Shown one piece after another: positions 1,062 through 24,524 of a DNA stretch of 27,508 bases. Where the stretch lies: the NCBI GenBank assembly GCA_016840165.1, contig JAEOSU010000094.1, forward strand, positions 1-27,508, read 5' to 3'. How positions within the stretch are numbered: position 1 is the first letter of the stretch; each line of letters begins with the position of its first letter. Position numbers and translations under genes: made by a program. This stretch comes from Promethearchaeota archaeon (GTDB lineage Archaea; Asgardarchaeota; Lokiarchaeia; Sigyniarchaeales; SOKP01). Under the pieces are notes generated by a model. That model saw only the letters and a list, made by a program, of their open reading frames with translations. It did no database searches and had not been told where the DNA came from.

Positions 1062-1117
1062 ACTTCGTCCTCACATATTTAATAAAACAAATTGCATATA
1101 TATTTTAGTGTACCTCT

Positions 1118-1771: not shown

Positions 1772-1802
1772 TTTAAATCCTCATTCTAACCAATTTATTA
1801 AT

Positions 1803-1814
1803 AAAAAAAAAAAA
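1803..1814 (-). terminator. Putative archaeal oligo-T terminator after the phospholipase gene
   Basis: A12 run on the + strand (T12 on the coding strand), ~30 nt downstream of the stop at 1845. Confidence 0.45.
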
Positions 1815-1844
1815 TTTAAATTAATTCTTTTTTAGACTCTAATG

Positions 1845-3110
1845 TTATGCAATGTTATAAGGTATTGGTAATGGAATGCTTTTACGTGCTCCAGTAGCTA
1901 TTGCTGCTACTAAAATAGGTAAGACATCAATGCTAGCCAGACCTAAGAACAATATTAATGATACTAATACACTTAATGAACGGAGGCAGTTTAAAGTAGC
2001 ATGAGAAGTATTTCCTTGTCCAGAACAATCTTCACAATACTTAGAAATACCAATTTCTCCTAATTCAGACCAAGCTTCAGCTATGTGATTGATGAGATTT
2101 GCCCCATAAAATATTCCCGCTTGAAGCCTATCATTAATATATTCAAAAAATTGCTTGTCAAAATGATTTACAGTAGTTCGATGACCTGAAGGCAAAGTTT
2201 TCTTGAAATCTCTAAAATGACAGTAACAATTTACCGCCTCCCATTCACCGGGAACGCTAGAACCCGCTTCATCAATATCACTTATTGTGGTATTGAATCG
2301 AGTACTGTAAGCAAGTAACTTGCACAGATGCCAAGAATAATCAAGACCAAGATCTAAAGTCCCTACATCAAATTCTACATCATAATCAAAATAATCATCC
2401 CTTGCGCTCCCAGATGTACTAGTTGCTTTTTGTACTATAGTTTCAAATCTACCATGTAAATCCCAATAAGCAGAACGTGAAACTCCATCTTTCAATACCT
2501 CAATATTATCATCATATTTGAGGGTATGAAAGAAACATGTAAAATCACCAATATAATGCATTAAAAATCCAATATAATATGCTGCTAGATCACATCTTCC
2601 CTCTTTTAGAGAATCTTTTGCAAATTCAGTGTACCTTCGTATATCATGCGCAATATTTGTATTCCTATGAGGTTGCATACTAAATGACGATCCTTCGTTA
2701 AAATCATAGAAGTATATTTTATGTCGTCTCCTATCTCCAACTCCCCGAACAATATAATTATTTAGTTTTAACTTTAAACTACTTAGATCGGGAGCCTCAG
2801 TACCAATAAGATATATCATTTTCCTTCTATCTGTCCAAAATAAACTCTCTTCATTATCAACCCATTTTGCTCTAGCATCATCATCATTTAGAACCGCTTC
2901 TAAAGCAGCTTCTGCTATCCAATCATGAGTTCCATAATGTTTACTGTCCTTCCACCAATTAACCAAAGCATCAGTAGCATAAACATCAAAATCACCTGTC
3001 GCATCACCATTATTCCAGGCCATAACTGGAGCCAAAAAGGCAACTACTAGTAATATACTTTCTATTACCAGTAAAATTCGTATAAACATTTTTCTTTTAA
3101 TTTTTATCAC
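1845..3110 (-). CDS. Secreted, membrane-anchored zinc-dependent phospholipase C / S1-P1 nuclease superfamily protein
   Basis: Signal peptide ending VMA|W, giving a mature N-terminal Trp. Zn-ligand motifs THDWIAE, EAPD, HYIGD, FHT and HGRFE. C-terminal hydrophobic anchor. GTG start overlaps the upstream TGA stop (GTGA, 3107-3110). Confidence 0.85.
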   Translation of the reverse strand: MIKIKRKMFIRILLVIESILLVVAFLAPVMAWNNGDATGDFDVYATDALVNWWKDSKHYGTHDWIAEAALEAVLNDDDARAKWVDNEESLFWTDRRKMIYLIGTEAPDLSSLKLKLNNYIVRGVGDRRRHKIYFYDFNEGSSFSMQPHRNTNIAHDIRRYTEFAKDSLKEGRCDLAAYYIGFLMHYIGDFTCFFHTLKYDDNIEVLKDGVSRSAYWDLHGRFETIVQKATSTSGSARDDYFDYDVEFDVGTLDLGLDYSWHLCKLLAYSTRFNTTISDIDEAGSSVPGEWEAVNCYCHFRDFKKTLPSGHRTTVNHFDKQFFEYINDRLQAGIFYGANLINHIAEAWSELGEIGISKYCEDCSGQGNTSHATLNCLRSLSVLVSLILFLGLASIDVLPILVAAIATGARKSIPLPIPYNIA

Positions 3111-9100: not shown

Positions 9101-12100
9101 ATACTCCAAATAACACTTCGGATTGCCATTAAATCTGTTATCGCCTATATTATATAGTTCATCCCATGAGTAACCAATAGCATCGACGAATAGCCAGAAA
9201 TCATAAAAAGTTCCATACCCTCGGGTGCGAAAGTTGATGCTACTGATGGATGTAACATTGTCATAGAAGTAATACTTGCCATAACTCTGCCCATCGATAT
9301 ATAAGTAATAATAATCACCATCGCATTCAAAATCATAACGAATGTGATACCAACGATCTGCCTCAAAATCTGCGACGATTGACTCCGCTCCTCCATCTTC
9401 AGTGACACGAAAAGAGCCTCCTTTATGGAGTATATTAACAGCCGAGGTGCCACTTGACAGGTCTCCTTCTCGTGCTTCCATAACCATAATTTCCGAATAG
9501 CCGTCTCTTCGAACCCAAAATTCGATCGTACCATTGCTTTGAGGAGAAAAAGAATTTTCTATTCTGGCATTTGCGGTAGGGCCAGGGGCGGTATCAAATA
9601 ATTCGACTACATTTGCATGACCATCTACTGATTCTATTACTTCTACATCGCAATAATCTCCTTCCCATGAGTCCCATTCGGCAGGTAGACCCCCAACTGT
9701 ATCATCGGTAAAACTATAGGTACCACAATAAACTCCATTTTCATAAAACCGATATGTACTGACAAATTCTTCTTCATTGTCTCCAACATAATACCCAGGA
9801 TCCCAAGAATAACCCACCGAATCAACAAATACATAGTAATCGTTATAGGTTCCCCAGCCTCGCGTGTGAAAAACTATTTTATTTAAAGCAGTGACATTAT
9901 CATAGAAATAATACTTGCCATAACTCTGCCCATCGATATATAAGTAAAAATAATCACCATTACATTCAAAATTATAGCGAATGTGATACCAACGATCGGT
10001 ATCAAAATCTGCCACAATTGACTCTGCTCCTCCGTCTTCGCTTACGCGAAAAGAGCCTCCTTTATGAAATAATTCAATTCCTAAAGTATCATCTTGGCAC
10101 ATCCTCCCAACGCGGAATTCTTCTGTATAACCATCTCTCCGTACCCAGAACTCTACTGTACCATTAGTCTGAGAAGAGAAAGAATTTTCAATCAGAGCAA
10201 AATGCGTTGTATATGCATTGGAATCCTTCAACCTCACTATTTTAGCATGTCCATCTAGTGATTCTAATACGCTTACATCACAATAACTTCCTTCATATGA
10301 GGTCCAACCATTGGGTAAGCCCCCAACGGTATCATCTTCGAAACTATACGTAGCGGGATAATGTCCCTCTAAAGTGGTATTGTCAGGATATATAATACCT
10401 ATCTCATAATCCCCATAATAATCATACCCAAGAGTAATATTATTCATGATCTCAGTCACATCAACCACTTGGCTGAAATATCGAGTGTTATTCGTTGAAA
10501 AGTTTGCTAATATAATCCCATTATCCTTTTTCGTGATAATAATTTGTAAGTCTAGCACTTCTTGATCGGAAACTCCATAGGAGCCTGTTGCATTCGTTCC
10601 ATACTCACCAAAAGAGATCCCAAATGAGATCTGGGCAGCAGAGGCTTGAGTGAAATGATGAGGAAAGTGTAGGGTAGAAGATGCGGTCAGATTTACTTTC
10701 TTATCTAAATCATCAAATCCCTCATCTGCAAGTTTTATGAGGTAATTTTTAATCTCTGCTGAGTCAGATACGAAATCATGATCACTATCCGCATCTAAGG
10801 GATTAGTATAAAACCCAATACCCCACCCATAGACTTCTTCCCCATCTTTTAAGCCATCTTGGTCGCTATCAGTATTATTTGGATCAGTACCATATTGTAT
10901 TTCCCAGTAATCTGAAAGAGTATCCTCATCTCCGTCCCATTTTGTCGGGAACGGATCTATGTCATCATCGAGCTGATCATTGTCCGTATCGCTTAGCTGG
11001 GGATTGGAACCCGCTAAGAATTCCTCATAGTCGCTTAATCCATCCGAGTCAGAGTTATTATCTAATGGATCAGCAGAAACATGAAATGTAGAACTGTTCT
11101 CAAAGTATACCACGGTAATGTTCCATCCATAAAGCTCATTCCCATCGGAAAGATAATCGTTATCCGTGTCATAATCTAAATTATCGGTATCCACCGAGAG
11201 TTCGCCGAGAGTGCTGTTAATAGTATAACCATCCCATAACCCATCCCCATCCGTATCGGGATCAAGATACGATGTATTAGAAATCGTCTGTTCATAAGTA
11301 TCGGTTAATCCATCACCATCCGCATCCGAGGTTCCATCAGCTAGTTCAAGCATATCCTCAACATTGTCGCTAATTCCATTTAATGTGTTATCGATAACTG
11401 AATTAATCTTAAAGGAGGCAGTATTCTTTTTGCCTTCCGGATCTACCACGGTAACTCTTCCTTGATAAATCCCCGTTTCTGTACACGTGAAAATGACATC
11501 TGAATAATAATTCCCTCGAGAATCATACATATAAAATTTGTTATTGCCTTTTCGGATCTCCCAGATAAATTTTAATGAACCCATATCATATTGTGTATCC
11601 ATAGCCCACGCACGGAGTTTGATCTCTCCATCAGAACTGAATAATTCATATTCATCCGAAGAAACTCCATGATACATATAGTTACCAATAAATACTTGAG
11701 GTGCTAAGGAATGAACATTAATGGTAATTTTCTGAGAGCTAGATGTACCTGATGAATCGGTTACTATGAGTGTATATTCATATTTGCCATTATCGAGAAT
11801 TACTTGTGGTTTTGGCTCATGAGAAAACAGTTGATTCTTCTCATCAAACCAAGAATATTCAAGTAAAGACTCATCTCGTTCGGAATCGTATACTTCCACG
11901 TCTAAGAGAAGTGCGCTCCCCTCTGTTGCTTGAAACCCGAATGGTCCGACAATCTCAGGAGCCTTCGAGAGGATAGTAATATTTTTTACATCGGTATGGA
12001 AATTACCATACGCATCTGCTATGGTAAGGGAAATGTTGTAGACCCCAGCCATTTGCCACGCATGTTCCGCATAAGGTGCATTTACAGTATAGCCATCAGA

Positions 12101-14398
12101 AAAGTCCCATTTATAATGTAATCCTATACAATCATTATTAATTTTTGAAGTAAATTTAATTCTCTCACCTTCATAAGCAGTAGGCAAGAACGAACTAATA
12201 ACTCCAAAGGGCTCTGGGCTCGATTCATATCCAATATCATGAAGGATTCGAGGATTTAACGTCTCAAAAACTATATCTTTACGTGTATCGATTGAAAGGT
12301 TAGTTGAAGTATACCCACCATCGTCATCAAGTGCATCCCCATTAATTATGTTTTTACTTTCTATACATCCAACTATACTTACTTCCGTTAATCCCATTCT
12401 ATTCTCAAGAATATCATAAAGATCAATTAAAGGAATTATAAGATATTCTAAATTGGTATTCACAGGGAATGAATTATTTGCCAAGTATGTATTTTGGGCT
12501 AATTTCTCTGCGTATACTGATGCATAATGTTGACCATTTTGCTCAAAGAGATTTATATTATAATTCACGTTATCCACAGTAAAAGACTCGTTTTGAAGGA
12601 TAAAATTATTAGAAGTGAATATGACAGTCTTCGACTCGGAATGACCAAGAGAGATCTGTACATCGTCTTGAGAAGGATCAAAAACTTGGGCTTGCAGAGT
12701 TATCGGATGATTTACCCCAAAATTAATCCCATCATAGAACAAAAAGGAGAGATCTTGCTCCCAATAAGCATCGTTGCTCACAACAAATCCTCCGCTCGAT
12801 AAAGAATATGATTGTCTATCTAAAAATATAATATTAAATTGGATTTCATACTCTGTATTGTCTCCAACATCGGAAGTAGTGTTTACTGCCACTTTCCAAT
12901 TCTTATCTGCTACAAGAGGAAATGGAATGGTTGCTGTAGTAATGGTTAAAGATGTATTATCAGAAAATGTAAGTTCATTCCGAAACATAGTGGCATTATC
13001 ACCTAGCAATTGAACCAAAAATGAAGTATTCAAACTCGAGTCAGTGCTATTTCTTATGATACTAAAAGAGATATTCGACATATAATAGGCTTGATAAATA
13101 TTAAGCTCAGGAGCTACATTTTCAACCTGAACGTAGGTAGAGTCAACTGCAAAATTATGATCTAAATCAAGAACCGCTGCCGTTACATTTCCTTCAAAGT
13201 CATCTTCAAAGTAATGGAGATTTAAATTTCCCCCTTGAATATAACTTTGAAGAGTGTGGGGATTAAATTCTTTAGAATTAAAGTTCCAATAATAGAGTAA
13301 ATCAATAATATCATAACTATCATCAGAACCTTTAGCCTGAAATATTACTGGCTCCCCTTCTTTTATGGTATGATTCAAGGAGAAATCTTCTAGCTTAATC
13401 TCAGGTAACGTATTTATAACTTCGATGAGTCGAGAAAATACCGCAATTTCGCCATCATTATCCTTTACAGAAAGAGTAACATTAAATGTTCCGGCATGTG
13501 AGTAAGTATGAGATATCTTCTTTCCATATTCCAAGACTCCATCTCCTAAATCCCAGAGATAACGTAATGACGCTAAATCAGAAGAGGTATCATTACTTTT
13601 TTCGGCATTAAAAGTTATTACTGAGCCAACTTGAAAAGGTTTAATCCCTCCAACAGTAAAATAAGCAGTAGGTTCACGATTCTGGACTTCAACGTTCATA
13701 GATTCTTTGCGTAGTTCCCCTTGAGAACCCATTACCGATACTGACACGGGATATATCCCTTGATTTTTCCATGTGTAATAAGTTACATTATTGGTTGTAG
13801 TTTCTTGAGCATCACCAAAATGATATATATAGGTAAGATCTTCATGAGTCTCTGAAGCATTTACTTCAATTTTAATTTCTTCATCCTCAAAAACCTTAAC
13901 TAAAGGAGCTGCACTTGTTTTCAAGGGTGAAATAGAAGGAGAGCGGCTGGAAGAATGCGAATTAACCGAGAACGTAAAAAGAGGTTCGTTATTTTGAATG
14001 GTAAGGTCGAGAGATTTTGTAAGATATCTTCCATATGCATTCCATACCTGGATAATAGGGGTATATCGCCCTTGTAATGAGTAAATGTGCTCGATTTCTC
14101 CCGACAAAAAGCCATTATTATTTTCAAGTAACTCTGAAACATCTTTAATCTCGCCATCCCCAAAGATTATCAGAACTGTTTCTGGCCCTCCCGAAAGATC
14201 GACTCTAAATATAAGTGTTTTTCCTGATTCATAAGATGCATCTTCAGAATAAATTTCAAAATTATGAATCGCAAATCTTTGGATTTGGGTTACTGGTGTA
14301 CTTACAACGTAAGAAAGAGTAATTGATAATATTATAAGTACAGAATAGATTAATATTTGTCTCCGTTTTTTCGATAATTTTTTGTAATTAATTTTCAT
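3107..14398 (-). CDS. Giant cell-surface protein: N-terminal TM, PKD/Ig-like domains, DxDxDG Ca-binding repeats, five ConA/LamG-like domains, Ig-like domains, multi-TM C-terminus
   Basis: The ORF track gives 3789 aa from TTG 14476; the likelier start is ATG 14398 (MKINYKKLSKKRRQ followed by a TM helix). PKD signatures (WDLGDG, WDFSDG, HTYSHAGTFNVTL). TSP3-like DSDxDGLxD repeats at ~10760-11330. Five repeats of YxxTYSF...GHxxV..L.D...GT(V/I)EFW...WYH....F...D..G.SW. Hydrophobic blocks at ~5215-5500 and ~3110-3810. Confidence 0.9.
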   Translation of the reverse strand: MKINYKKLSKKRRQILIYSVLIILSITLSYVVSTPVTQIQRFAIHNFEIYSEDASYESGKTLIFRVDLSGGPETVLIIFGDGEIKDVSELLENNNGFLSGEIEHIYSLQGRYTPIIQVWNAYGRYLTKSLDLTIQNNEPLFTFSVNSHSSSRSPSISPLKTSAAPLVKVFEDEEIKIEVNASETHEDLTYIYHFGDAQETTTNNVTYYTWKNQGIYPVSVSVMGSQGELRKESMNVEVQNREPTAYFTVGGIKPFQVGSVITFNAEKSNDTSSDLASLRYLWDLGDGVLEYGKKISHTYSHAGTFNVTLSVKDNDGEIAVFSRLIEVINTLPEIKLEDFSLNHTIKEGEPVIFQAKGSDDSYDIIDLLYYWNFNSKEFNPHTLQSYIQGGNLNLHYFEDDFEGNVTAAVLDLDHNFAVDSTYVQVENVAPELNIYQAYYMSNISFSIIRNSTDSSLNTSFLVQLLGDNATMFRNELTFSDNTSLTITTATIPFPLVADKNWKVAVNTTSDVGDNTEYEIQFNIIFLDRQSYSLSSGGFVVSNDAYWEQDLSFLFYDGINFGVNHPITLQAQVFDPSQDDVQISLGHSESKTVIFTSNNFILQNESFTVDNVNYNINLFEQNGQHYASVYAEKLAQNTYLANNSFPVNTNLEYLIIPLIDLYDILENRMGLTEVSIVGCIESKNIINGDALDDDGGYTSTNLSIDTRKDIVFETLNPRILHDIGYESSPEPFGVISSFLPTAYEGERIKFTSKINNDCIGLHYKWDFSDGYTVNAPYAEHAWQMAGVYNISLTIADAYGNFHTDVKNITILSKAPEIVGPFGFQATEGSALLLDVEVYDSERDESLLEYSWFDEKNQLFSHEPKPQVILDNGKYEYTLIVTDSSGTSSSQKITINVHSLAPQVFIGNYMYHGVSSDEYELFSSDGEIKLRAWAMDTQYDMGSLKFIWEIRKGNNKFYMYDSRGNYYSDVIFTCTETGIYQGRVTVVDPEGKKNTASFKINSVIDNTLNGISDNVEDMLELADGTSDADGDGLTDTYEQTISNTSYLDPDTDGDGLWDGYTINSTLGELSVDTDNLDYDTDNDYLSDGNELYGWNITVVYFENSSTFHVSADPLDNNSDSDGLSDYEEFLAGSNPQLSDTDNDQLDDDIDPFPTKWDGDEDTLSDYWEIQYGTDPNNTDSDQDGLKDGEEVYGWGIGFYTNPLDADSDHDFVSDSAEIKNYLIKLADEGFDDLDKKVNLTASSTLHFPHHFTQASAAQISFGISFGEYGTNATGSYGVSDQEVLDLQIIITKKDNGIILANFSTNNTRYFSQVVDVTEIMNNITLGYDYYGDYEIGIIYPDNTTLEGHYPATYSFEDDTVGGLPNGWTSYEGSYCDVSVLESLDGHAKIVRLKDSNAYTTHFALIENSFSSQTNGTVEFWVRRDGYTEEFRVGRMCQDDTLGIELFHKGGSFRVSEDGGAESIVADFDTDRWYHIRYNFECNGDYFYLYIDGQSYGKYYFYDNVTALNKIVFHTRGWGTYNDYYVFVDSVGYSWDPGYYVGDNEEEFVSTYRFYENGVYCGTYSFTDDTVGGLPAEWDSWEGDYCDVEVIESVDGHANVVELFDTAPGPTANARIENSFSPQSNGTIEFWVRRDGYSEIMVMEAREGDLSSGTSAVNILHKGGSFRVTEDGGAESIVADFEADRWYHIRYDFECDGDYYYLYIDGQSYGKYYFYDNVTSISSINFRTRGYGTFYDFWLFVDAIGYSWDELYNIGDNRFNGNPKCYLEYFELDFSRYLDPNDSDSDNDGILDGVEMGVLVNGTDIIEIQDYYAPYLVNGTQENMEIFNVTLNPIGNYSGSFSFENEEDGTSGTNIDFIDSISVDSNCQASILSEFGYHNKVLELSDDNSNGNVEVYNTQFERSNGTIEFYWAQSAEDKFSEVIFYDGSTMAISLKMRENGQFSWYDGSYHDIKVYSSNGWYHHKIVFNCSAGTKGKFDWYINGELEAENINFYQSNCVLLDKLMLSTGQSSANFDVYFDAIGYCWYIINHSYYWEGENLGDTIPDSFEVGLYPLYPGTYSFTGENGEDQDDIDFIDSYNKPSSTTIQVIEEKDGHNEVLELYDNNYIAGVGYIYAVNEFDAQTNGTVEFWYRTTNYHKMGKIEFLSGSTSKFSVGVLHEYFYYVSGYNWVGTPENNKWLHFKIKFDCNTGKFNWYVDDSLIAENISFSSSSIDKIRLGTLSNDGGYYNYYDAFGFSWDPFYEIGDNKYIQFPSLDHPDEYYLEISQTGEVTDAQLDIEISSVGTPNGTGQVFIYLIKDVLNLTKSDICLMIDTVSFNSSAAFSYSKSLDLGAYCNDGTIYGTYQLQIKLYGTKVNNLFNLSTFKIEADTYVPANFEDTVGWVTDPANNDTDGDGWSDYYEIFTSGTSPLSKDSDGDEANDPEDRDPLHDVMLEIHPYTGEYNNLAIGDGHALMQVVVAFSFGENDYYIVTPVTQGTSAPNIYGSYQACYFDEHYYVNIDDDTTRQGNTITMNLQLYSVYRHLGSNDIKGVDEDAQYTIDTSGEYTILFEGDTGRFGFPNYVRVKVKTVYIEKANTLAIFEANSTFNGHYNDWNQHYSVIQLNIPGEGHYLGSESFLDSPIGNCSIDIDFVTSDSSSVESYVKIYEEIDGHSQVLGVSEGDSDHSNFYHQFDAGHAHGSIEWWWYSTKANGGVLNFYLQNGGTDVIRLYIRDGKIKRYYGGNYYDVMSVSSDTWYRMRVDFACDSSGYNGLSIYHYDVYVDGVQKVSDGGFVSNQGQINRIQISTGGDAFTGYFDAFGFSWEPDYTLGDNEDHYDCSGTPFEYGMNVIIIPTSLFTQTHLNGYVEHGTLNETVLYHEEEYMFEFTGPDRDGESEKANADVDFVFIRRGISPEDALAVLELVLNGVINETLDESNNTIYINATIHSYVSTKLNGTEATEMNLPYSVLGYIPWVNNYTNSAMGDEPDPEGAFDFVLWFLCLVNPILRVVLNAQMAMTGGKFFAYLQEFLATIFMNALGFLAQLLWVIARAALLVLAYVLLAIHIFMQILIYITSGIALLVLTSFMGGYTEFSWNFVEFSVYSRVFRMESEVKWYYWDFFDMKFPWVVDKVYNNGTLTFTTELDVLFGNEVFNGVNNSYFEINEPQGPPSLHCSFNHVSGATYEFWTLYDDSGTGDNPPDANYGVRLHLIAPNGTAIEPLSMNVHEDYLPDPDYSKPVNYTYVVDLSTIYELDGLWHYFFTTKDNFSDQIVFKPVGSYLLGPCISTSDLSYVLEYSTIQTSKNEWYTSAGFKNENFTFKTWYYGSEAPSNVSLCLIPANISNGFGGVNKTVGIRKFLMTPSVVYPNYSAMDPVEFNKTLNFSNLGYNDNEIGWFHHYFEVEFSDGSLSYLYGDSYDESNSSIEVDLKGPYVVKDEDKPVLLGVKCYNLLGDYWRISTDYTSFLFEATFMSPDNYDLMEGYPRIIFTDGKGRESQPFYMEDVIYEYELGVYACAATVNLADLGAGKWFWRIEAKDEYGVAAETVTSGDSYIYNLGNPIDMTTCYTLTSSLSGFLPLVFYGAAAVAAWNPDSSASTVLTVLGCASAIISSIIMIKAAVDSENPFMILGTATALLLNSFFLSFSGVFKERTIDWFNLFGDLGDESIMSFARAKFGKGLASPLGSTIKTVLRYTAIMSLLASALSINPQHDMLSFIYDISGVGTLLNMIFTPIQIVVNLLSTIFVRTAFDAVNLIDEPSCKTKVKFVSRNVSGTGLLIGLFAVLMFIEFLEYMG
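9255..10066. repeat. Intragenic tandem duplication of a LamG-like domain (near-identical DNA, offset 639 nt)
   Basis: tcatagaa(g/a)taatacttgccataactctgcccatcgatatataagtaa...gaaaagagcctcctttatg occurs at ~9261-9427 and ~9900-10066. The offset of 639 nt equals 213 codons. Confidence 0.9.
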
Positions 14399-14580
14399 TT
14401 TATTTTTCTCTTTTTTTATAGATTTTTTTAGTAAATTATTTTCGATATTTGCAAGGAAAAATAGAGGACAGAACAATAATGAGACTCTAAAGTGAAATAA
14501 CGCTATCCCAATTACTAGCTGGATTCCTCTGATTTTTCCCTATTCAATATCTTTGCAGTTACAATATATTGTGAATCTCA

Positions 14581-15519: not shown

Positions 15520-16275
15520 CTAACAGAATATTTGTTTAATTTGGCCTTGCAAAAAATGGAGAAAATTTTCATTAAACATTCCCTCCTTAATTTCTTTTCT
15601 TAGGAGTTCTGAAGTGTACTTATTTCTTAAACCTTGATTGTTCTTAATTTCTGTGAAACACCCTCTAATTGAGTCCAGTTTTTGAGAATCCAAATTTAAA
15701 TCAAATTCTTGGTTCAGCTTATCATCGGAATATACAAGAAAACTTGAAATATTAATCCCAGCACGAGTTAGCTTCTGAAGCAAATTTAAATATGGTAAAT
15801 GAATTGGTTCTAAGGGAATTCCTAGCTTATAACAGGTGGATCTGATTCTTTCTTCGTTCCATTGATCTAATTCCTCTAAGTCAGAGCACCTCTCCTTTCT
15901 AAACCTTTCAATTGTTAAAGGTGGCTTTTTAAACTTATTTAAGATCGAATTTGTAAGGTCTAGCGTTGATTTATAGCTGATCCAATCTTTATTGCTAACA
16001 TCGCCCTCAATTTCTTGATGTCTATATATTTGGGTGTAAAAGTCGTCAAAAGCAAAATCTTCTATTATTCCATATATATAGTCTACTTCTTCGTGAGTTA
16101 AATCCAATTCATAACGATTATTATTTAGAAAAATTTCATTGTTCCATGCTTCTCTAAATTTCGATATAATGCTATCAGCGATATCATCATCCCACGGCTC
16201 CTCAGTATCCGAGGCAAATCCATGACCTTGATCTATCCAATCAAGCTCTTCCCTATTTAATACATATTTAACCAT
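15520..16275 (-). CDS. Hypothetical protein (acidic N-terminus)
   Basis: 251-aa ATG-initiated ORF, co-oriented 50 nt downstream of the nuclease. No recognisable motif. Confidence 0.7.
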   Translation of the reverse strand: MVKYVLNREELDWIDQGHGFASDTEEPWDDDIADSIISKFREAWNNEIFLNNNRYELDLTHEEVDYIYGIIEDFAFDDFYTQIYRHQEIEGDVSNKDWISYKSTLDLTNSILNKFKKPPLTIERFRKERCSDLEELDQWNEERIRSTCYKLGIPLEPIHLPYLNLLQKLTRAGINISSFLVYSDDKLNQEFDLNLDSQKLDSIRGCFTEIKNNQGLRNKYTSELLRKEIKEGMFNENFLHFLQGQIKQIFC

Positions 16276-16325: not shown

Positions 16326-17225
16326 TCATAAATTATAAAAATCAAATATACTTCTATTCTTTTTTTTTGAATCTGCCTTAAAAATTACTTTTAAATGATT
16401 ACAATATTCACAAAACATGCAAATTTTTTCTGAACTGGGAAAATCTATAATAGAAGGCAAATCTTCAATATTTTTACAATTTATTGCTTCAATAATTTTA
16501 GATTTTATCTTGCTTAATTCAGAGTCCTTATATTTCCTTAGTCTTTTAATTTTTTGAAAACCTCTCTGAGGAGAACCGGGTTTCGTATTCCATAATTCTA
16601 AATTTATGTCTTTCGCCTGTTTTTCATTAAAAATTTCTTTATATAATCTTAATTGCCTATTATGTTTAGTAGGACTAGGTTTTCCAGTTTTTAGTTCAAT
16701 AAAGTAAAAATTATAATCTTTTTGATTAAAACATACCAAATCAATTTTTCCGGTCAATAAAACTCCTGGAATAATTTGATATGTAACATTGAATTCATCA
16801 TCAATTACAGAGTTTTCTAAGAAATTATTTCTTACATATATTAGGGATTTAGCGTGCTCAACTAAAATTGGAAGTTGCATATTTATATTATCAATCAATT
16901 CAGCATATTCAGATTTCTCGAGAATGTTTGATTTTAAATAGATTTTCAATAAATATTTCCAATAATCCAAAACGAATCCAAATGCCAATCTTATTGATTC
17001 TTCTAATGATTTATTTAACCTATAGTAGTAAAATTCAATATGCGAGAATATTCTTTTAAAAGTAATTTGAAGGATAGTATGCAGGATCTTACCAATTCTC
17101 ATATAGACGTTTGGATTTTCTTCTTCAGGTATGAATTCTTTCTTTAATCTTGAAATGATATAAATAATTAATTTCCTATCACATGTTGCTTCTGAAATAT
17201 TTGATATGCCTAAAGTAAAATGCAT
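16326..17225 (-). CDS. Cas4/AddB-like PD-(D/E)XK nuclease with predicted Fe-S cluster
   Basis: N-terminal Cys (EATCDRK), motif I MRIGKILH, DDEF, LTGKIDLV, FIELKTGK (ExK), RQLRLY (QxxxY) and C-terminal CMFCEYC. The start overlaps the upstream stop (TAATG at 17223-17227). Confidence 0.9.
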   Translation of the reverse strand: MHFTLGISNISEATCDRKLIIYIISRLKKEFIPEEENPNVYMRIGKILHTILQITFKRIFSHIEFYYYRLNKSLEESIRLAFGFVLDYWKYLLKIYLKSNILEKSEYAELIDNINMQLPILVEHAKSLIYVRNNFLENSVIDDEFNVTYQIIPGVLLTGKIDLVCFNQKDYNFYFIELKTGKPSPTKHNRQLRLYKEIFNEKQAKDINLELWNTKPGSPQRGFQKIKRLRKYKDSELSKIKSKIIEAINCKNIEDLPSIIDFPSSEKICMFCEYCNHLKVIFKADSKKKNRSIFDFYNL

Positions 17226-19102
17226 TAGAATGGATTTTCCTCATCATATTTATAAGGTATCTTATTAAAAAGCCCTTTTTTCTTATATTGTAATAAAAAT
17301 GGTAAATTTACTTTAGAAAAACTCTCTGTTTGATAGAATGTCAAGTAAAAAATAATTTGCAAAATATATTTACTATTTATCTTATTCAATTCGGAACTCA
17401 TTGTCACCAATAGAGGATTAGGAAGACCTTGCTCAGGAATATCCGGATATCCTGTATTTATCAATAGAAAACGATTTAAATCATTGTCAAATAACTGGAT
17501 ATAAGAACCATTCTTAGGGATTTCAAGTTTATTATATTGAGAATTATAAAAAATCCGCGCATTTGGTCTTCTTATTAAAACACAATAAGATTTTCCTTTT
17601 ATTTTTTCAATAAAATCTTCAGAATAGCTACCTTGTTCAAAAATATATAATTCATTATTATAATCAAATCTATATTTTATTTCTAAAATATTAAGGATAT
17701 CGTTGAGGATATCATCCCTTTCTTGATTTTCTGACTTTTTAAAATAGATTTCTTTAAATCTCTTCAAATTATGTTTTATAGTATTAAAAATAATACCAGA
17801 AACCTTAAATATATCAAAATCGGGTTCAAAAATTACACTAAATGAGATTATTCTCTTAAAAATTGGACGTTCATTGAAATACCATATCAAAGTTTTATTA
17901 ATCCTAAAATTGAATGCCAACCAAATTAATAATAGATTCTCATCAAAATCATCAATTATTTCCAATGTAGAAATATTTATAGCCTTAGAAATATCTGCCT
18001 TTCTCTTTATAGTAGCATAAACATATTCAGAACCCTTGTATTTATCATTAATTAATACTAGATAAGGATAATCATTCGAAAAATTGAATTCGTCTATATT
18101 ATTAAGATAATATTTACTTTTTATATTGAAGATACCTGAATCCTCGAGTTTTTTAAGGTAATCCTCCAAAATTTGTTTAGATACTTCAGATAACTTATAT
18201 GTATCAATAATAATTTCTATTTCGATTATTGGTATTAAATTTAAATTATTTCTAAAAAAATCTAATAAATTCATTTTGAATGACTTATTTTTAATCAAAT
18301 CTAAATTCTGATTTATAAAGTTAATATATATTTCATTAGGATAATTTAATGAAGTATTTTTATATGTGGAATTAATTTCAGGCTCATAAATAAAATTGAA
18401 TTCTTCAAGTCTATTGTAAATATATGAACAATATTCGTCAAATCTTTTAAGAAATTTTTCAGAGTCTAAATATACTAAAGAATTCCACATAGGATCATTT
18501 TCTATAAGTCTCCTGTCCTCTAAACTTAGTGGTAAATCTAATAAATTGCCATAAATCTCATAATTGGGCAAAAAACTTACTATAAATTTGTTGTTATTGA
18601 TAAAAACTTCATGATTGACTGATTTATAGATATTAATCTCATTAAATTTTTTTGCGTCTTTAATTGAGATTGTATTAATTAATTCTTTTCTGTAAGATAA
18701 TTTACCCTTAGCAGATTTTCCTAAAAAGGTTCTAATATCTATAGGTTTTTCAAATCCATATTCAATGTATAGATGATCAATCAATGTATAAATAAAAATT
18801 GAGATAGCTTTAGAATCATTGAAATTTTTAAATTTTATTTCTTCAATGACTTCTCCAATATAATTTTTGATAACTATAATCTCCTTTAAAATTGTATCTT
18901 CTTTACTGATAATATAATATTGGCTATTACTCTTGAATAAGCCAAATGGGAAATTACTTTGGTATTCTCCATTTTTGATATAATATTGTAAGGTGGAGAT
19001 TGGGATATCATCTCGATTAAAATCAACTCTAAAAATGCTTAATTTGTTTACATCGATATTTCCACTCCAGCCAGGAATAATTAAATTGGTAATTTGAACC
19101 AT
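17225..19102 (-). CDS. Divergent, catalytically inactive Argonaute-like protein lacking PAZ (N-L1-L2-MID-PIWI)
   Basis: N-terminal ITNL..LSIFRVDF. L1 INIYKSVNHEVFINNNKFIVSFLPNYEIYGNLLDL. MID YATIK...SKAINISTL. PIWI tail LIRRPNARIF, IPKNGSYIQL, FLLINTG, QGLPNPLLV, QIIFYLTF, VNLPFLLQY. The GxD and RDG catalytic motifs are replaced (IISFS, FEQG). Confidence 0.75.
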   Translation of the reverse strand: MVQITNLIIPGWSGNIDVNKLSIFRVDFNRDDIPISTLQYYIKNGEYQSNFPFGLFKSNSQYYIISKEDTILKEIIVIKNYIGEVIEEIKFKNFNDSKAISIFIYTLIDHLYIEYGFEKPIDIRTFLGKSAKGKLSYRKELINTISIKDAKKFNEINIYKSVNHEVFINNNKFIVSFLPNYEIYGNLLDLPLSLEDRRLIENDPMWNSLVYLDSEKFLKRFDEYCSYIYNRLEEFNFIYEPEINSTYKNTSLNYPNEIYINFINQNLDLIKNKSFKMNLLDFFRNNLNLIPIIEIEIIIDTYKLSEVSKQILEDYLKKLEDSGIFNIKSKYYLNNIDEFNFSNDYPYLVLINDKYKGSEYVYATIKRKADISKAINISTLEIIDDFDENLLLIWLAFNFRINKTLIWYFNERPIFKRIISFSVIFEPDFDIFKVSGIIFNTIKHNLKRFKEIYFKKSENQERDDILNDILNILEIKYRFDYNNELYIFEQGSYSEDFIEKIKGKSYCVLIRRPNARIFYNSQYNKLEIPKNGSYIQLFDNDLNRFLLINTGYPDIPEQGLPNPLLVTMSSELNKINSKYILQIIFYLTFYQTESFSKVNLPFLLQYKKKGLFNKIPYKYDEENPF

Positions 19103-19110
19103 CTCGATTT

Positions 19111-21342
19111 TTACAAATAAAATGGTATTTTAAAACTAAATGAATTTAAATTGTATTGAATCCCTTTTTGAAGTGTCGATCGAGCAAAATGCAATGGAAA
19201 TGGTAATTTTGTTTCATTTTTTACTAATGCAGGATTGTATCTAGAAAGTTTAAAGATTCTTGATAAAATATTTCTTAAATTATCCGATTTAGTGCTTAAC
19301 ACTCGGACTTTTATACAAGAGGGAGTCCCTATTTGTGTCTTGGAGGTAATAATATGGCAACTTTTTCCATTAATTATTACACCATTTCCTTGCTTAGGAG
19401 GATAAATCATCCATTTCTTCTTATCGTCTTGTTCAAATAACCTTACTAAAGATGCGTATTTTATTCCAACAATGTCAAGATTTTTCGAATCTGTTATATT
19501 CTCAATAGATTTCACTATATTAGGAATTACTGGACCAAATATCAGTAGAAATATACTAGTATATTTCTTAAATTCCTCACTTAAAATTTCAAGAAGTTTT
19601 TTATCAAAAATTTCTGGATTTTCATTAAGGTATTTACCCTCTATAAAATCACCTTGATTAGTAAAAACTAAAATTGAAGCAATGACATGATCCTTAAAAA
19701 ATTTAATATTCAGACCAATAATGATTTCATTACTTCTAAAAACCTCTTCTAAAACCCAAGTCTTCCCCTCAGATTTTAAATAGATCTGAAGATAAATCAG
19801 AGATCTTAAACTCCCATAACCTATGTCATTTAAGGTATTAATGTTTATTGTTTGATTTGGCTTATCATTTTCAATCAATAAGGATTTAACATTATTGTGC
19901 AACTCTATATTTTCAATATCATTAATCAAAATATAAAAATGATACACTTTGGGTTGTTCAGCATTTAGTATTTTTTGAACATCATCTAATTTCTTTATTT
20001 TTAATGGTGTCAATTGAATGTTTTCGATTTTAGAGAATGATTTATACGTCTCGATGTTATTATATAAGGATTCTGAACTTTTTAATAGATTTTCAATTAT
20101 ATCTAAACCTTTACCTGATTTGAAATATAATAAATGAAAATGGAGAGTATCTTTCCCGTTACAAGATTGTTTATAGAAACCTATATCATTATATTCTATT
20201 GAGGGAAATTCGGTAGGATATTCATTTTTTAGCAAATACGTAGGATTGGCAAAATCAACCTTTACTATATCAGATGACCTAGTATCTAATAATTCTTCAG
20301 GAATGATTGGAAAATTTAAATCTCTAAGATCTGTTATGAGATTCATGTATTCTTCTTTAATCCTTTTGAACCTTTCAAACGGTTTTGGTTGGATTTTCCT
20401 CATGAGACTTTTTGCATCTGAACCAGCATCACTAGTTATAGGTACAATCCTAAGTATTTCTAATGGATAAGAATAAACCTTTTCGGGATTACTCCAAAAG
20501 ATCCTATGAATTAATGGTTCTTTATCTATTATTTTCTCACTTAATAATTTCGTAGGACAGATATTCTCATCTTTGTAAAATTCCAATAAATTTATTGTAG
20601 CTTTGCTAGGTTTTTCATTTACAATCTTCAAATCTTTAATATTGCTAAAATAAGATGGATAATTTAGATCACAAGTGCCAAATGGATTTAGGTAATCTGG
20701 GCAATTAACTACACAACATATTTTTTCAGTATTCCTATTGTTATCATATTTTATTTTGTTGTCTTCCCATAAATCTCTCAGAGTATTTTCTGAAAAAAAT
20801 TTTGACTTTGGCTCAATAATTATCCCAATATTTCCTCCAGACTTTAAAAGTATAGGTTTATACCGAAAACCCATATGTATATGTATTATCCCAAATTTAT
20901 CATCAATTTCTGGAGATGTTGCTTGATAAACATTTTTCCCATATTCTTCATAAACTATATAATTATCTTCTCTATTTCTTAGTACAACAGCTATTCTTTC
21001 TGCGATATACCTCAAAAAAAGTGTTTCTATTTCTGTATCTTTTAGAGCATTGTTTAGACTAATCTCTCTTTTTTGGATGTGATTAGAACTAATAATTATT
21101 TTATTTTTAATTATGAATTTCATTAACTTAATTTTATCTAAAATGTCTTCATCTGAGATAATTGAGTTACCATATTGAAAAATTGTTATTCTTTTATGAT
21201 CTTTTCGTAATTTTTTTACTAAATAGCCAATTAATCTATATCGATTATTCTCAATATCTCCTAAATTGTAGATATATAATTTTATCGATGAATTTTTTAT
21301 CTTTTTTAATTTGACTATATTAGTATAAAGAATCTTATTTAT
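19111..21342 (-). CDS. ago: Long prokaryotic Argonaute, catalytically inactive (N-L1-PAZ-L2-MID-PIWI)
   Basis: Numbering is from the 670-aa ORF (ATG 21123). PAZ NLLEFYK and YSYPLEIL; L2 PKPFERFKRI; MID pocket H409-K413-Q424-K450 (LQIYLKSEGKTWVL); PIWI IIIGLN (D->N472), LIFG (RDG lost), PPKQG, GTPSCI, IFKLSRYN, TKLPFPLHFAR; C-terminal PFYL. The frame stays open upstream to 21351 and encodes an Ago-type N-terminus, so the start is placed at ATA 21342 (ATT 21333 is an alternative). Confidence 0.88.
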   Translation of the reverse strand: MNKILYTNIVKLKKIKNSSIKLYIYNLGDIENNRYRLIGYLVKKLRKDHKRITIFQYGNSIISDEDILDKIKLMKFIIKNKIIISSNHIQKREISLNNALKDTEIETLFLRYIAERIAVVLRNREDNYIVYEEYGKNVYQATSPEIDDKFGIIHIHMGFRYKPILLKSGGNIGIIIEPKSKFFSENTLRDLWEDNKIKYDNNRNTEKICCVVNCPDYLNPFGTCDLNYPSYFSNIKDLKIVNEKPSKATINLLEFYKDENICPTKLLSEKIIDKEPLIHRIFWSNPEKVYSYPLEILRIVPITSDAGSDAKSLMRKIQPKPFERFKRIKEEYMNLITDLRDLNFPIIPEELLDTRSSDIVKVDFANPTYLLKNEYPTEFPSIEYNDIGFYKQSCNGKDTLHFHLLYFKSGKGLDIIENLLKSSESLYNNIETYKSFSKIENIQLTPLKIKKLDDVQKILNAEQPKVYHFYILINDIENIELHNNVKSLLIENDKPNQTININTLNDIGYGSLRSLIYLQIYLKSEGKTWVLEEVFRSNEIIIGLNIKFFKDHVIASILVFTNQGDFIEGKYLNENPEIFDKKLLEILSEEFKKYTSIFLLIFGPVIPNIVKSIENITDSKNLDIVGIKYASLVRLFEQDDKKKWMIYPPKQGNGVIINGKSCHIITSKTQIGTPSCIKVRVLSTKSDNLRNILSRIFKLSRYNPALVKNETKLPFPLHFARSTLQKGIQYNLNSFSFKIPFYL

Positions 21343-22037
21343 CCCTCCATTTTATCTTTAAATTCAAGGAAATCAATTTTCAAACTAATGTTCAAATTGT
21401 TATCCTTGATGAAATCTACAATTACATTATAGATCAAATAAATCCCATAGTTTAAAGGTATATAAGCGCATTTTACTTTTTTAAAAGACTTGTTAAGATT
21501 TGAGATAAACGAAATAATTGGTTCTGATTCTTTAATTATTGATTTCATTTGACATTTTATCAATAATAAGTCATTAGAAATAGATAAATGAGTTTGGATC
21601 AGAGAACTCTCAAATAATGCCATTAATATTTTTTTATTATTATCTACTGAACTTATCTCAAATACTCCGAGAGGATTTAAACGTTGTAAAAGATAATTAC
21701 TTAAATCTTCATAATTTAAACGTAATTTCTCATCAACAAGGCTTATAAATTGACCGGAAATTAAGTTTTGAAATGATGAAAATTCATTCTTTTTAGGATA
21801 GTAATCATAATCTATTTTAGGTAATAAAACAAACTTTTGATTAGTAGGTGTGTAATTAATTTTTTTATTGGTTGTCAATTCTTTTAGTAAGTTTTCGATT
21901 GAATCTTTTAGCTCTTTTAAATTTTGAACAATCACTTCTTTTTCAATTAAATATCTAATGATATCCTCTATGGAGCCCTTTTGATACTCTTCTATATATT
22001 CTATTATATAATTTTTAAAATCTTCCATTCCAATCAA
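21339..22037 (-). CDS. Argonaute-operon protein: N-terminal winged-helix-like domain, C-terminal alpha/beta (possibly YbjN-like) domain
   Basis: FKNYIIEYIEEYQKGSIEDIIRYL...IENLLKELTTNKKINYTPTNQKFVL resembles a wHTH. The C-terminal pattern HLSISNDLLLIKC...ISFISNLN...VKCAY is weakly YbjN/chaperone-like. Start is TTG 22037 or ATG 22028. The stop overlaps the proposed ago start. Confidence 0.6.
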   Translation of the reverse strand: MIGMEDFKNYIIEYIEEYQKGSIEDIIRYLIEKEVIVQNLKELKDSIENLLKELTTNKKINYTPTNQKFVLLPKIDYDYYPKKNEFSSFQNLISGQFISLVDEKLRLNYEDLSNYLLQRLNPLGVFEISSVDNNKKILMALFESSLIQTHLSISNDLLLIKCQMKSIIKESEPIISFISNLNKSFKKVKCAYIPLNYGIYLIYNVIVDFIKDNNLNISLKIDFLEFKDKMEG

Positions 22038-22074: not shown

Positions 22075-23376
22075 TTAGATTACATATTCCTCTGGCAATT
22101 GACTAAAAAATCTATTTTCTGTTGTATTTTTTATAATCAATGGATTAAGTTCACCAGATATTATAGAATTATAATTTTCAATAAACCATTTGTTTATTTG
22201 ATCTATAAAACCTTGAGTATCTGTTTCTTCAATAAGAAATCCATTAAAAGTGGTTCCATTTTTATCAATAAAAGTTAAGGATGGACTTGATTTATTATTT
22301 TTAACTTCATAAACGCCAATTATTTGATTTGTTTTTATCCTTTTCCGTTTTTCTTCTCTAATTTGGTGAAATTCAAACCAACTTTCTATTGGATAATAGA
22401 TTTTTGGATTAAAGATTACAATTTTCCTACTTTCTGAAACCCATTTACAATCTTTATTATAATAGTACAAAATTGGTTGAATTTTACCTTTTAAAACATT
22501 AATGGCATAAATATTAAATTGAATAGGTACTTCATTTAAAGATATATTATTTTTCCTTGATTCCAGGTAAACTAAAAGAGACCCAGCACCAATATTTTTT
22601 ATTATTTGATTATTCCAATAATAATAATTATGCTCATGCCCACTGAAAATCAAGTGGAGATCATTTTCTTCTAAAAAGTTAATACTTATCTTGTTATCTT
22701 CAAGGTTTTTTAGTGAGTGATGACATATTAGAAATTTATTCATATTACTAAATTGGATTTTTCCAAAATTATCTTCTAATTCCGTTAAAATGTTTGATAA
22801 ATCCTTCATTGATAACACTCCAATATCTAAATATTTTTGATTCAAATACTTATTTCTATCTTCAACATTTAAATTCCTAATCTCGTCATTAATAAGTCTT
22901 TTTTCAATATATTTACATGAATTTACTGCAATGAAAATAGAATTATAATCCTTTAAATATTTGAAACTAACTTGATTTTTCCTAAAATCTTTTGATAAAT
23001 TCACATTGAATTCTTTTTTTTTCTTTTTTAAGAAATTTGTAAACTCTTTAAATTGAGATTTTGACTCAATTGAATTCAAATCTAAGTCATGATTTCCATT
23101 GGCTATACATATCGGTATACTCCTTTTAATGAATATTTGCAAAAATTCCATAAGATATTTATTTTGAAGTTGATCCATATCACCTTTCGAAGAAATATCT
23201 CCTGAGATAATTAAAATTTTAATGGAATAATCTTGCATTATCTTTTCTATTGTAGTTATTAAGAGAGTAAAAAAATCTTCAAAGGATTTTCCAAAACCTG
23301 AATCTCGAGCAATGGATTTTTCTCCAAAATGTAAATCAGAAATATGAATAATATTAAAAGCTTTATCATTTAACAT
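22075..23376 (-). CDS. Calcineurin-like metallophosphoesterase with C-terminal extension
   Basis: All five motifs are present: HISDLH, ISGD, GNHD, CHH and SGHEH. Confidence 0.92.
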   Translation of the reverse strand: MLNDKAFNIIHISDLHFGEKSIARDSGFGKSFEDFFTLLITTIEKIMQDYSIKILIISGDISSKGDMDQLQNKYLMEFLQIFIKRSIPICIANGNHDLDLNSIESKSQFKEFTNFLKKKKKEFNVNLSKDFRKNQVSFKYLKDYNSIFIAVNSCKYIEKRLINDEIRNLNVEDRNKYLNQKYLDIGVLSMKDLSNILTELEDNFGKIQFSNMNKFLICHHSLKNLEDNKISINFLEENDLHLIFSGHEHNYYYWNNQIIKNIGAGSLLVYLESRKNNISLNEVPIQFNIYAINVLKGKIQPILYYYNKDCKWVSESRKIVIFNPKIYYPIESWFEFHQIREEKRKRIKTNQIIGVYEVKNNKSSPSLTFIDKNGTTFNGFLIEETDTQGFIDQINKWFIENYNSIISGELNPLIIKNTTENRFFSQLPEEYVI

Positions 23377-23624: not shown

Positions 23625-24524
23625 CTAAATTTTATCAAGGTCCAATATTGATGCTAACCCAGAACGTTTTAAATTTTGATCTAAATCTCCAAATTTATTT
23701 ATATATGTTGTTAAATCATCGAAAATATTACTAGCAAATAGATCTCTTTCAGTATTTATTGAATCTTTAGTAAATTCTCTTAGTAGATCATTCAAAAATT
23801 TTAAATTACCTGATACTAGCTCTATAATATCATATATATTAATCCCATGAATCCCACCATATAAACAGTCCAGTACGTAACTCAAAAATTCCTTTCTATT
23901 TACTTTTTCTTTACTTAATACTTCATTTCCATTCATCAAATTAAAAATATTTTCTTGTTCTTTTCGCGAAAGTTGTTCTGAATTACCTGTTCCATACTTG
24001 CCCGCTGCGATAAATGTAATAACGTATCCCAAATTCTCAATTTCTAATGGATGAGGAATATAATGACTTGATGTATAGGAAACCTTTTCTTTTAAGTTTC
24101 TTCTATATTCAATTATAGAATTTTTAGGATTATTTTCTTTACTTACCTGAAATAAATCCCATAGTCCCTCTCCAATACTATCATAATTTGAATAGAAAGA
24201 AACCAACTCATCTCCTTTAAAATATCCCTCTCTTGTACAAAAATCAGGAAAATCCTCTTGATTGATTTGAATTACTAATCCTTCTATGTTTCTGGGAATT
24301 GGGGTATTCTCAATAAGGCTTCCTTTAAAATTAAAGTTGTCAATATCCATACAACAAATATTTCTAATCGAGGGTTTGGCAAAACCGCGTTCTCCTTTAA
24401 TTTGAGCTTTAAAGGCATCCAAAATTTTTAATTTTCTTAAATTCCCTTGCATATTTCTATAAAGACCGCGAAAACTCATAAGTGAGCCATAACCAAAAAT
24501 CAATTCTGTTTTAGAATTCACCAA
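23625..24524 (-). CDS. Gamma-glutamylcyclotransferase-fold (GGCT/ChaC/AIG2-like) protein
   Basis: N-terminal IFGYGSLMS motif, IEGLVIQI strand and REGY (putative catalytic Glu). GTG start preceded by GGAG. Confidence 0.65.
   Translation of the reverse strand: MVNSKTELIFGYGSLMSFRGLYRNMQGNLRKLKILDAFKAQIKGERGFAKPSIRNICCMDIDNFNFKGSLIENTPIPRNIEGLVIQINQEDFPDFCTREGYFKGDELVSFYSNYDSIGEGLWDLFQVSKENNPKNSIIEYRRNLKEKVSYTSSHYIPHPLEIENLGYVITFIAAGKYGTGNSEQLSRKEQENIFNLMNGNEVLSKEKVNRKEFLSYVLDCLYGGIHGINIYDIIELVSGNLKFLNDLLREFTKDSINTERDLFASNIFDDLTTYINKFGDLDQNLKRSGLASILDLDKI

Follow-up and report, generated by a model that had tools for sequence, protein, structure and literature searches.

Catalytically inactive ("dead") prokaryotic Argonautes (pAgos) of the short and long-B groups sense their targets with the help of a guide and then activate an effector encoded beside them. 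To our knowledge, no prokaryotic immune system built on the cooperation of two distinct Argonautes is known. Here we analyse a stretch of 27,508 nucleotides (nt) of contig JAEOSU010000094.1 from a Promethearchaeota archaeon (Lokiarchaeia; assembly GCA_016840165.1), referred to below as the window, in which five close-packed genes on the minus strand encode, in this order, an exchangeable effector, a winged-helix protein of 232 amino acids (aa), two different Argonautes (Ago1 and Ago2), both predicted to be inactive, and a Cas4-like nuclease. On balance, we lean towards reading these genes as a guide-dependent composite pAgo defence cassette of Asgard archaea, in which two modules have been fixed as one operon and catalysis is delegated. 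By analogy, the cassette would belong with the pAgo systems that combine a sensor with an effector.

The APACE1 and APACE2 systems (Bobadilla Ugarte et al. 2025, PMC12094033), like the cassette, couple a pAgo to a Cas4-family PD-(D/E)XK nuclease of ~280-310 aa that carries a single N-terminal cysteine and three C-terminal ones. Ago2 has its closest relatives in pairs of this kind, whose pAgo keeps the first and third aspartates (D1 and D3) of the slicer tetrad. The Cas4-family nuclease ACE1 heterodimerises with its pAgo, cleaves single-stranded DNA (ssDNA) and trims guides (PMC12094033). However, the pAgos of APACE are active slicers able to work alone, whereas Ago2 is predicted to be dead and to have almost no PAZ domain, and APACE has no counterpart to the second dead Argonaute, the winged-helix protein and the exchangeable effector found here. 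ACE1 was reported as cyanobacterial and ACE2 as bacterial, while the cassette is archaeal, and the nuclease of the window has an ExK motif with CX2CX2C in place of DxK with CX2CX5C. Thus, the adjacent four-cysteine Cas4-family nuclease is present, and the active long-A partner is absent.

The long-B systems (BPAN, BPAS and BPAM) and the short systems (SPARTA, SPARSA, SPARDA and SPARHA) resemble what we propose for the upstream half of the cassette, in that a dead Argonaute sensor is joined to a variable co-encoded enzyme. They differ in having one Argonaute each, and the short ones fuse the effector to APAZ. The cassette has two long-type Argonautes and no APAZ protein (none of the neighbouring genes matched APAZ in Pfam or PADLOC scans), a winged-helix protein stands between effector and Argonaute, and the part of the effector is taken by a metallophosphoesterase or by Cap4/LmuA-type proteins. 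The latter proteins carry the Cap4 double-stranded DNA (dsDNA) endonuclease domain (PF14130) in common with LmuA of Lamassu and Cap4 of CBASS, but the operon that holds it here encodes Argonautes and no LmuB/SMC partner, CD-NTase or SAVED domain.

Asgard Argonautes (asAgos), from the same host phylum, are many, polyphyletic, mostly inactive and found in operon-like clusters (Bastiaanssen et al. 2024, PMC11217426; Leao et al. 2024, PMC11291487). The operons described differ from ours, consisting of HrAgo1 with RNase III and a helicase, or of HrAgo2 with transposition and replication genes, and neither survey mentions a two-Argonaute operon or a Cas4, Cap4 or phosphoesterase partner. AfAgo is likewise an archaeal dead Argonaute, heterodimeric with the product of a neighbouring gene (PMC10954474); that partner, however, supplies the N-lobe missing from a truncated Argonaute, whereas both Argonautes here are complete from N to PIWI. 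The literature searched (on Asgard Argonautes, on APACE1, and the survey of pAgos by Ryazansky et al.) contains single-Argonaute systems and no two-Argonaute operon, and a named system of this make-up was not found there.

With its two dead Argonautes, APACE-like nuclease and exchangeable effector, such a conserved operon would be a new architecture among pAgo systems, and would serve as a natural system for studying the making and hand-over of guides. Effector exchange would extend to the Argonaute systems of Asgard archaea. Asgard archaea are the lineage closest to eukaryotes, which typically run multi-Argonaute pathways. As the Ago2 family gives no direct match in Pfam, PADLOC or the PDB, standard annotation of defence systems evidently still overlooks Argonautes.

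Two distinct Argonautes predicted to be inactive

Ago2 (625 aa, 17225..19102, minus strand) has no match of its own in Pfam, PADLOC, NCBIfam or the PDB. An exhaustive profile search recovered a family that falls into 48 clusters at 50% identity, with proteins mostly of ~600-660 aa, and among 34 aligned members three match Pfam Piwi (best 3.5e-8) and 11 match a PADLOC pAgo model (best 1.2e-34), while the profile of all 34 matches KmAgo at 4.6e-6. The AlphaFold (AF2) model of Ago2 has a predicted local distance difference test score (pLDDT) of 88.7 and a predicted template modelling score (pTM) of 0.88. In Foldseek this model retrieves full-length Argonautes from all domains of life, with E values of ~1e-22 to Siwi, AaAgo and hAgo2, and in VIA-align its residues 3-620 superpose on such structures, including the Asgard HrAgo1, with Z scores of 21-24.7 over 480-540 residues. 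The MID-PIWI fold on which the earlier note had staked its reading of the 625-aa protein is therefore found in the model, from which we assign Ago2 as an Argonaute with N, L1, L2, MID and PIWI domains. The L1 sheet (135-185) is separated from the L2 helices (214-234) by only ~28 residues, which form two short helices, so that PAZ, judging from the secondary structure of the model, would be essentially absent.

A language-model lead that Ago2 is a pPIWI-RE protein was rejected. None of PF13032, PF13111 and PF18157 is matched by Ago2 or its 34 relatives, three of the relatives match canonical Piwi instead, and the cassette lacks the DinG-type helicase partner of pPIWI-RE systems (Burroughs et al. 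2013).

Ago1 (~740 aa, 743 in the open frame 19111..21342 of the minus strand) matches two PADLOC pAgo models (2.8e-28 and 7e-15) and has no match to Piwi in a Pfam scan. The profile of its orthologues aligns with residues 213-724 of CpAgo, the long-A pAgo of Clostridium perfringens (1.1e-24), and also matches KmAgo (6.9e-15). The Ago1 and Ago2 families align with each other over L2-MID-PIWI with 98.7% probability (hhalign). These profile matches identify Ago1 as a divergent long pAgo and a predicted member of the Argonaute/PIWI superfamily. Ago2 aligns to full-length Argonautes from residue 3, and the alignment of the Ago1 profile to CpAgo from residue 213 was taken as PAZ onward. The best sequence matches of both proteins among solved structures are CpAgo and KmAgo, a hint of long-A affinity.

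Catalytic positions were read from hidden Markov model (HMM) alignments to KmAgo (D527, E562, D596 and D713) and CpAgo rather than from structural superposition, and the comparison covers D1, D3 and the fourth position (D4), as the glutamate-finger position was not resolved. Ago1 has N545, G603 and R721 at D1, D3 and D4 and has lost the RDG motif, its relatives having N, H or A at D1. Ago2 has S422, Q490 and K608. Outgroup Argonautes keep the GIDV and RDG motifs. With all three positions replaced in both proteins, Ago1 and Ago2 are both predicted to be dead as slicers, and the absence of the DEDX tetrad from both, which the earlier note had read from the letters, holds when they are aligned to active Argonautes.

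The basic MID pocket for the guide 5'-phosphate appears to be kept in both proteins, and both may bind guides. In Ago2 the pocket residues Y362, K366, K373 and R400 hardly vary, if at all, among the 34 relatives and would form an unusual Y-K-K-R version of the Y-K-Q-K pocket, departing from the canonical Q and K at two positions. In Ago1 the pocket reads x-K-Q-K, with K486, Q497 and K523 mostly conserved and the first position variable.

All Ago1-family proteins also share four cysteines, C210, C214, C224 and C262 (window 20557-20716), in the region equivalent to PAZ, and the same motif occurs in two related solitary Argonautes (L055 and L048; L and G numbers denote the loci and genomes compared). 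These cysteines suggest a zinc site, possibly a zinc-binding insert, and we found no mention of a comparable four-cysteine feature in pAgos.

Two Ago1 orthologues are interrupted. The one in L002 has a single in-frame TAG (L002:5578-5580) at a conserved position, a leucine in the window, and is split by gene callers into 508 and 206 aa; a point mutation, an assembly error or read-through could explain this. The one at L028:150-2402 is in two pieces, an N-terminal one of 191 aa and another of 512 aa, owing to a frameshift or an assembly error.

The Cas4-like nuclease, the exchangeable effector and the winged-helix protein

The last gene of the cassette (16326..17225, minus strand) encodes a 299-aa protein that matches Pfam PDDEXK_1 (2.5e-9) and, weakly, PADLOC Cas4 (2.9e-4). 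Residues C15, H49, E144, D162, K179, Q191, Y195, C269, C272 and C275 are invariant in 10 orthologues, and E177 is nearly so. These residues comprise the D, ExK and QxxxY motifs of the RecB/Cas4 set, and a C-terminal CX2CX2C that with one N-terminal cysteine would make up the "iron staple". The PD-(D/E)XK motifs and four cysteines described earlier as intact (D162, E177/K179, Q191/Y195; C15, C269, C272, C275) are therefore retained across the orthologues, and the protein is predicted to be a Cas4/Dna2/AddB-type nuclease. Its profile has as its best PDB match the DNA2 nuclease domain (1e-6), followed by Cas4 (4r5q, 3.7e-5) and the 277-aa cyanobacterial protein 9iac (1.6e-4), which was deposited beside an Argonaute entry and is presumably ACE1; by this measure the nuclease is no closer to ACE1 than to Cas4 or Dna2.

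Gene 1 (22075..23376, minus strand) encodes a 433-aa protein with a calcineurin-like metallophosphoesterase domain and a C-terminal region of ~180 aa to which no fold was assigned. It matches Pfam Metallophos at 2e-15 (58.1 bits against a cut-off of 21.5), the NCBIfam models for an anti-phage phosphoesterase (2e-10) and SbcD (7.5e-8), and a PADLOC Effector/Endonuclease model (2.6e-6). The metal-binding motifs DxH, GD, GNHD and GHxH are all present in the translation, in keeping with its assignment as a metallophosphoesterase. The same kind of enzyme stands in this position in L017 and L002 and, by motif, in L030. In L018, L019, L021 and L060, however, gene 1 encodes a protein of 350-420 aa with a Cap4 dsDNA-endonuclease domain (Pfam PF14130, Cap4_nuclease, 1e-9 to 8e-7; PADLOC LmuA, 5.7e-7), that of L060 being assigned with a profile built from the other three proteins (2.8e-10). 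Genes 2 to 5 thus stay constant while gene 1 switches between Metallophos and a Cap4_nuclease/LmuA-like domain, which is the effector-exchange pattern seen in defence systems. No C-terminal adaptor domain shared by the two kinds of effector was found with hhalign, using alignments of three sequences each. Since gene 1 holds the exchangeable effector, the main effector is unlikely to be the Cas4-like nuclease, for which, by analogy with ACE1, the role of a guide-processing partner of Ago2 is more likely.

The 232-aa protein (21339..22037, minus strand) belongs to no Pfam family and is present in every complete cassette, with orthologues at the same position in L017, L002, L018, L019, L021, L030, L032 and L060. 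Its AF2 model (pLDDT 75.7) was built from an alignment with one misassigned row (L028:150-722, the N-terminal piece of an Ago1). Residues 1-76 match many winged-helix domains, among them those of E2F-DP, Fur, histone H5 and Z-alpha, with Z scores of 7-8.4 and root-mean-square deviations of 2-3 A, so the winged helix proposed in the earlier note is supported by the high-confidence N-terminal part of the model. The C-terminal alpha/beta domain (residues 87-230) has no clear fold, giving middling matches to the unrelated Roco COR, SirA, Bet v1-like and spermine synthase N-terminal domains.

Conservation and modular composition of the cassette

All five genes stand in this order in the sister genome (L001/L017), where the proteins are 58-76% identical to those of the window, in a contig of the European Nucleotide Archive (L002) at ~40% identity, and in three further Asgard genomes (L018, L019 and L021) at 23-34%. 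It is also found in the metagenomic contigs L030, L032 and L060, the first two of which are cut, with Ago2 just 20-24% identical, and the cut contigs L020, L022 and L028 hold partial cassettes. Overall, the order is conserved in at least 10 loci from several Asgard families, down to ~20% identity, and the trio of two Argonautes and a nuclease pointed out in the earlier note is thus no peculiarity of one genome. Strong matches to Ago2 (E <1e-100) occur in seven of 400 Asgard genomes, and the same seven have strong matches to Ago1 (E <1e-190). The distribution is patchy (13 of the 400 genomes overall, and two of 42 in the genus), as is typical of accessory or defence genes. No viral contig matched the cassette in a related-locus search with one of the alignments, which returned solely the sister genome.

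Each half of the cassette also exists in a smaller form. Genome G158, which is 99% complete, encodes a metallophosphoesterase, a protein like the 232-aa one and an Ago1-like protein with the four cysteines (L054), that is, the first three genes alone, which we call module A. The phosphoesterase is 35% identical to that of the window and matches the family profile over its full length (2.5e-67), the second protein reaches 11.8 bits with a clean profile, whereas the best of 200 shuffles reaches 3.8, and the Ago1-like protein is 30% identical. No Ago2 or nuclease follows this module, and no Ago2 match was found anywhere in the genome. The nearest relatives of the Ago2 clade (L023, L057 and L058), on the other hand, keep GIDV and RDG and are each followed by a Cas4-like nuclease, matching the pair of Ago2 and nuclease (module B). 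In a maximum-likelihood tree built with a quick search from the 400 C-terminal residues, the Ago2 clade has a support of 98% in the Shimodaira-Hasegawa-like approximate likelihood ratio test (SH-aLRT), its placement beside the aspartate-keeping Cas4-linked Argonautes has 91, and Ago1 is placed elsewhere with 80. The occurrence of separate modules together with these placements points to a fusion of two modules and not to a tandem duplication. Hence, the "tandem Argonautes" of the earlier note are indeed adjacent and different, but they are not simple tandem duplicates, as they fall in different clades and each has its own smaller module elsewhere.

In one of these related loci (L058:5385-11977), a 721-aa Argonaute that keeps D1 and D3 is followed by a 307-aa Cas4-like nuclease and by a second Piwi protein of 845 aa, after which the next protein carries a CARF-like HFX_2341_N domain. 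Argonaute pairs flanking a Cas4-like nuclease may be a wider theme in these archaea. Some cassettes have defence genes in their vicinity, a point in favour of a defence role. A GmrSD/NsnA-like enzyme adjoins the cassette in L020, and a radical-SAM protein similar to prokaryotic viperins (PADLOC pVip, 5.9e-13) and an HD-domain protein lie ~2-4 kb from it in L002 (L002:11165-12971). On the strand opposite to the solitary module A of G158 and next to it, a gene for a DEAD/Helicase_C protein of 1769 aa (L054:2202-7508), which has an MrfA Zn-binding (MZB) domain, may have a role in defence or repair.

A possible mechanism and its alternatives

We propose that module A would act as a sensor-adaptor-effector unit, in which Ago1 would bind a short guide and recognise the complementary nucleic acid of an invader, which it could not cut. 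Ago1 would then signal through the 232-aa protein, releasing or recruiting the exchangeable enzyme of gene 1, and this enzyme would degrade DNA, either that of the invader alone or that of the whole cell (abortive infection). Module B would descend from APACE-type pairs of an aspartate-keeping pAgo and a Cas4-family nuclease. Its Fe-S nuclease would turn ssDNA ends into 5'-phosphorylated guides, which the dead, PAZ-less Ago2 would capture in its basic Y-K-K-R pocket, after which Ago2 would be a second sensor or would hand the guides to Ago1. That Ago2 lacks the slicer residues kept by its solitary relatives suggests that killing is delegated to the gene 1 enzyme. Within the defence reading, what we infer is guide binding, the source of the guides, how the effector receives its signal and what becomes of the cell. 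More tentatively still, the two distinct dead Argonautes could operate as one machine, with Ago2 and the nuclease holding guides and Ago1, adaptor and effector sensing and killing; we regard this division of labour as possible, with the odds somewhat against it.

Several points weigh against the defence reading. The first pocket position of Ago1 is variable and some Ago1 orthologues lack the first K, which makes guide binding by Ago1 less certain than by Ago2. Owing to long branches and a short search, the tree is indicative only, and in it the solitary Ago1 of G158 branches inside the Ago1 clade beside that of the window, so that its lone module A may reflect a secondary loss and not the ancestral state. 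Moreover, metallophosphoesterases of the SbcD/Mre11 kind and Dna2/Cas4-like nucleases double as DNA-repair enzymes, and the window has no recognisable defence genes other than the cassette. The last two points fit a non-immune role, in DNA repair, replication or mobile-element maintenance, in which the dead Argonautes would target SbcD-like and Dna2-like enzymes to DNA structures. The SbcD similarity of gene 1 and the DNA2 match of the nuclease are consistent with such a role, as are the RmuC gene adjoining the related solitary, Cas4-linked Argonaute of L023 and the ties of some pAgos and of the HrAgo2 operon to replication or transposition genes (PMC11217426). We nonetheless consider it improbable, because the sporadic spread of the cassette is unlike that of housekeeping genes, the swap of the phosphoesterase for a Cap4/LmuA-type nuclease is typical of defence effectors, and no integrase or transposase adjoins the cassette in the loci read.

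The relationship between the two modules allows further readings. They could be two independent neighbouring systems, an effector system built on Ago1 and an APACE-like pair of Ago2 and nuclease, with no functional link, as each module is found separately elsewhere and defence genes cluster in islands. Yet order, strand and junctions of at most 10 nt are the same in at least 10 loci of several Asgard families, a co-occurrence of seven out of seven is unexpected by chance, and the loss from the Ago2 clade of slicer residues that its solitary relatives keep suggests dependence on a partner module; we therefore give little credence to mere neighbourhood. At the other extreme, along the lines of the model in the earlier note, Ago1 and Ago2 could be obligate partners, forming a stable heterodimer that senses the invader and activates the Cas4-like nuclease, the gene 1 enzyme or both. 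In favour of such a heterodimer, the two genes strictly co-occur and are always neighbours within the cassette, 8 nt apart here, with the pairing kept down to ~20% identity, and pAgo-pAgo contacts drive activation in short pAgo systems. Against this stand Ago1 and its partners without Ago2 in G158 and Ago2-like proteins without Ago1, which speak for separable modules, and the literature searched holds no prokaryotic heterodimer of two full-length Argonautes. A complex prediction with a cut Ago1 (375-743) and full Ago2 returned no answer (score 0.00), which is evidence in neither direction. Overall, an obligate heterodimer seems to us rather unlikely, though a more serious contender than either a non-immune role or unlinked neighbours, and a composite cassette of two cooperating modules is the interpretation we retain.

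Gene boundaries and genomic surroundings

The host DNA is that of an Asgard archaeon of the Lokiarchaeia/Promethearchaeota type, and the public sequencing runs that match it come from marine-sediment metagenomes; no RNA runs are among the listed public runs containing it. The earlier note had described four co-oriented genes with tight junctions, and their positions, the 8 nt between the Ago1 stop and the Ago2 ATG, and the one-base overlap of Ago2 stop and nuclease start (TAATG) were all verified. The four genes are real, but the unit is larger than had been thought, since the metallophosphoesterase gene extends it upstream to 23376.

The start of Ago1 needed closer attention. Upstream of its first ATG (21123) the frame has no ATG, GTG or TTG, yet it stays open as far as the 232-aa gene, whose stop it reaches. 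The ~70 codons in this interval are kept in every orthologue, and the Ago1 coding region therefore begins beside the upstream stop. The N-terminus starts with ATG or GTG in most loci, whereas only ATT or ATA is available in the window and the sister genome. An ATT at 21333, also present in the sister genome, lies 5 nt past the upstream stop and 10 nt past a GGAGG, and judging from this context it is the likelier start. The ATAA overlap proposed earlier was thus right in placing the start at the upstream stop, although the ATA itself is the less likely codon. This arrangement suggests non-canonical initiation of Ago1 (window 21331-21351), which perhaps keeps its level low. A scan of the window for promoters and terminators remained at chance level with bacterial models, which do not apply to an archaeon.

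Two flanking genes were excluded from the system for their poor conservation. The L017 locus lacks a homologue of the 251-aa gene downstream (15520-16275), and a 299-aa gene upstream (23625-24524) is conserved solely in the sister genome (L017). The other neighbours of the cassette in the window include a giant surface protein, a leucine-rich-repeat protein and a MarR-like gene. The giant protein, of 3789 aa, has PKD, laminin-G-like and sialidase-CBM-like domains and is followed by a zinc phospholipase-C-like protein, a 217-aa protein and the leucine-rich-repeat protein (window 3107-14476 and 75-3110); these genes resemble a surface or adhesion cluster unconnected with the Argonaute cassette.

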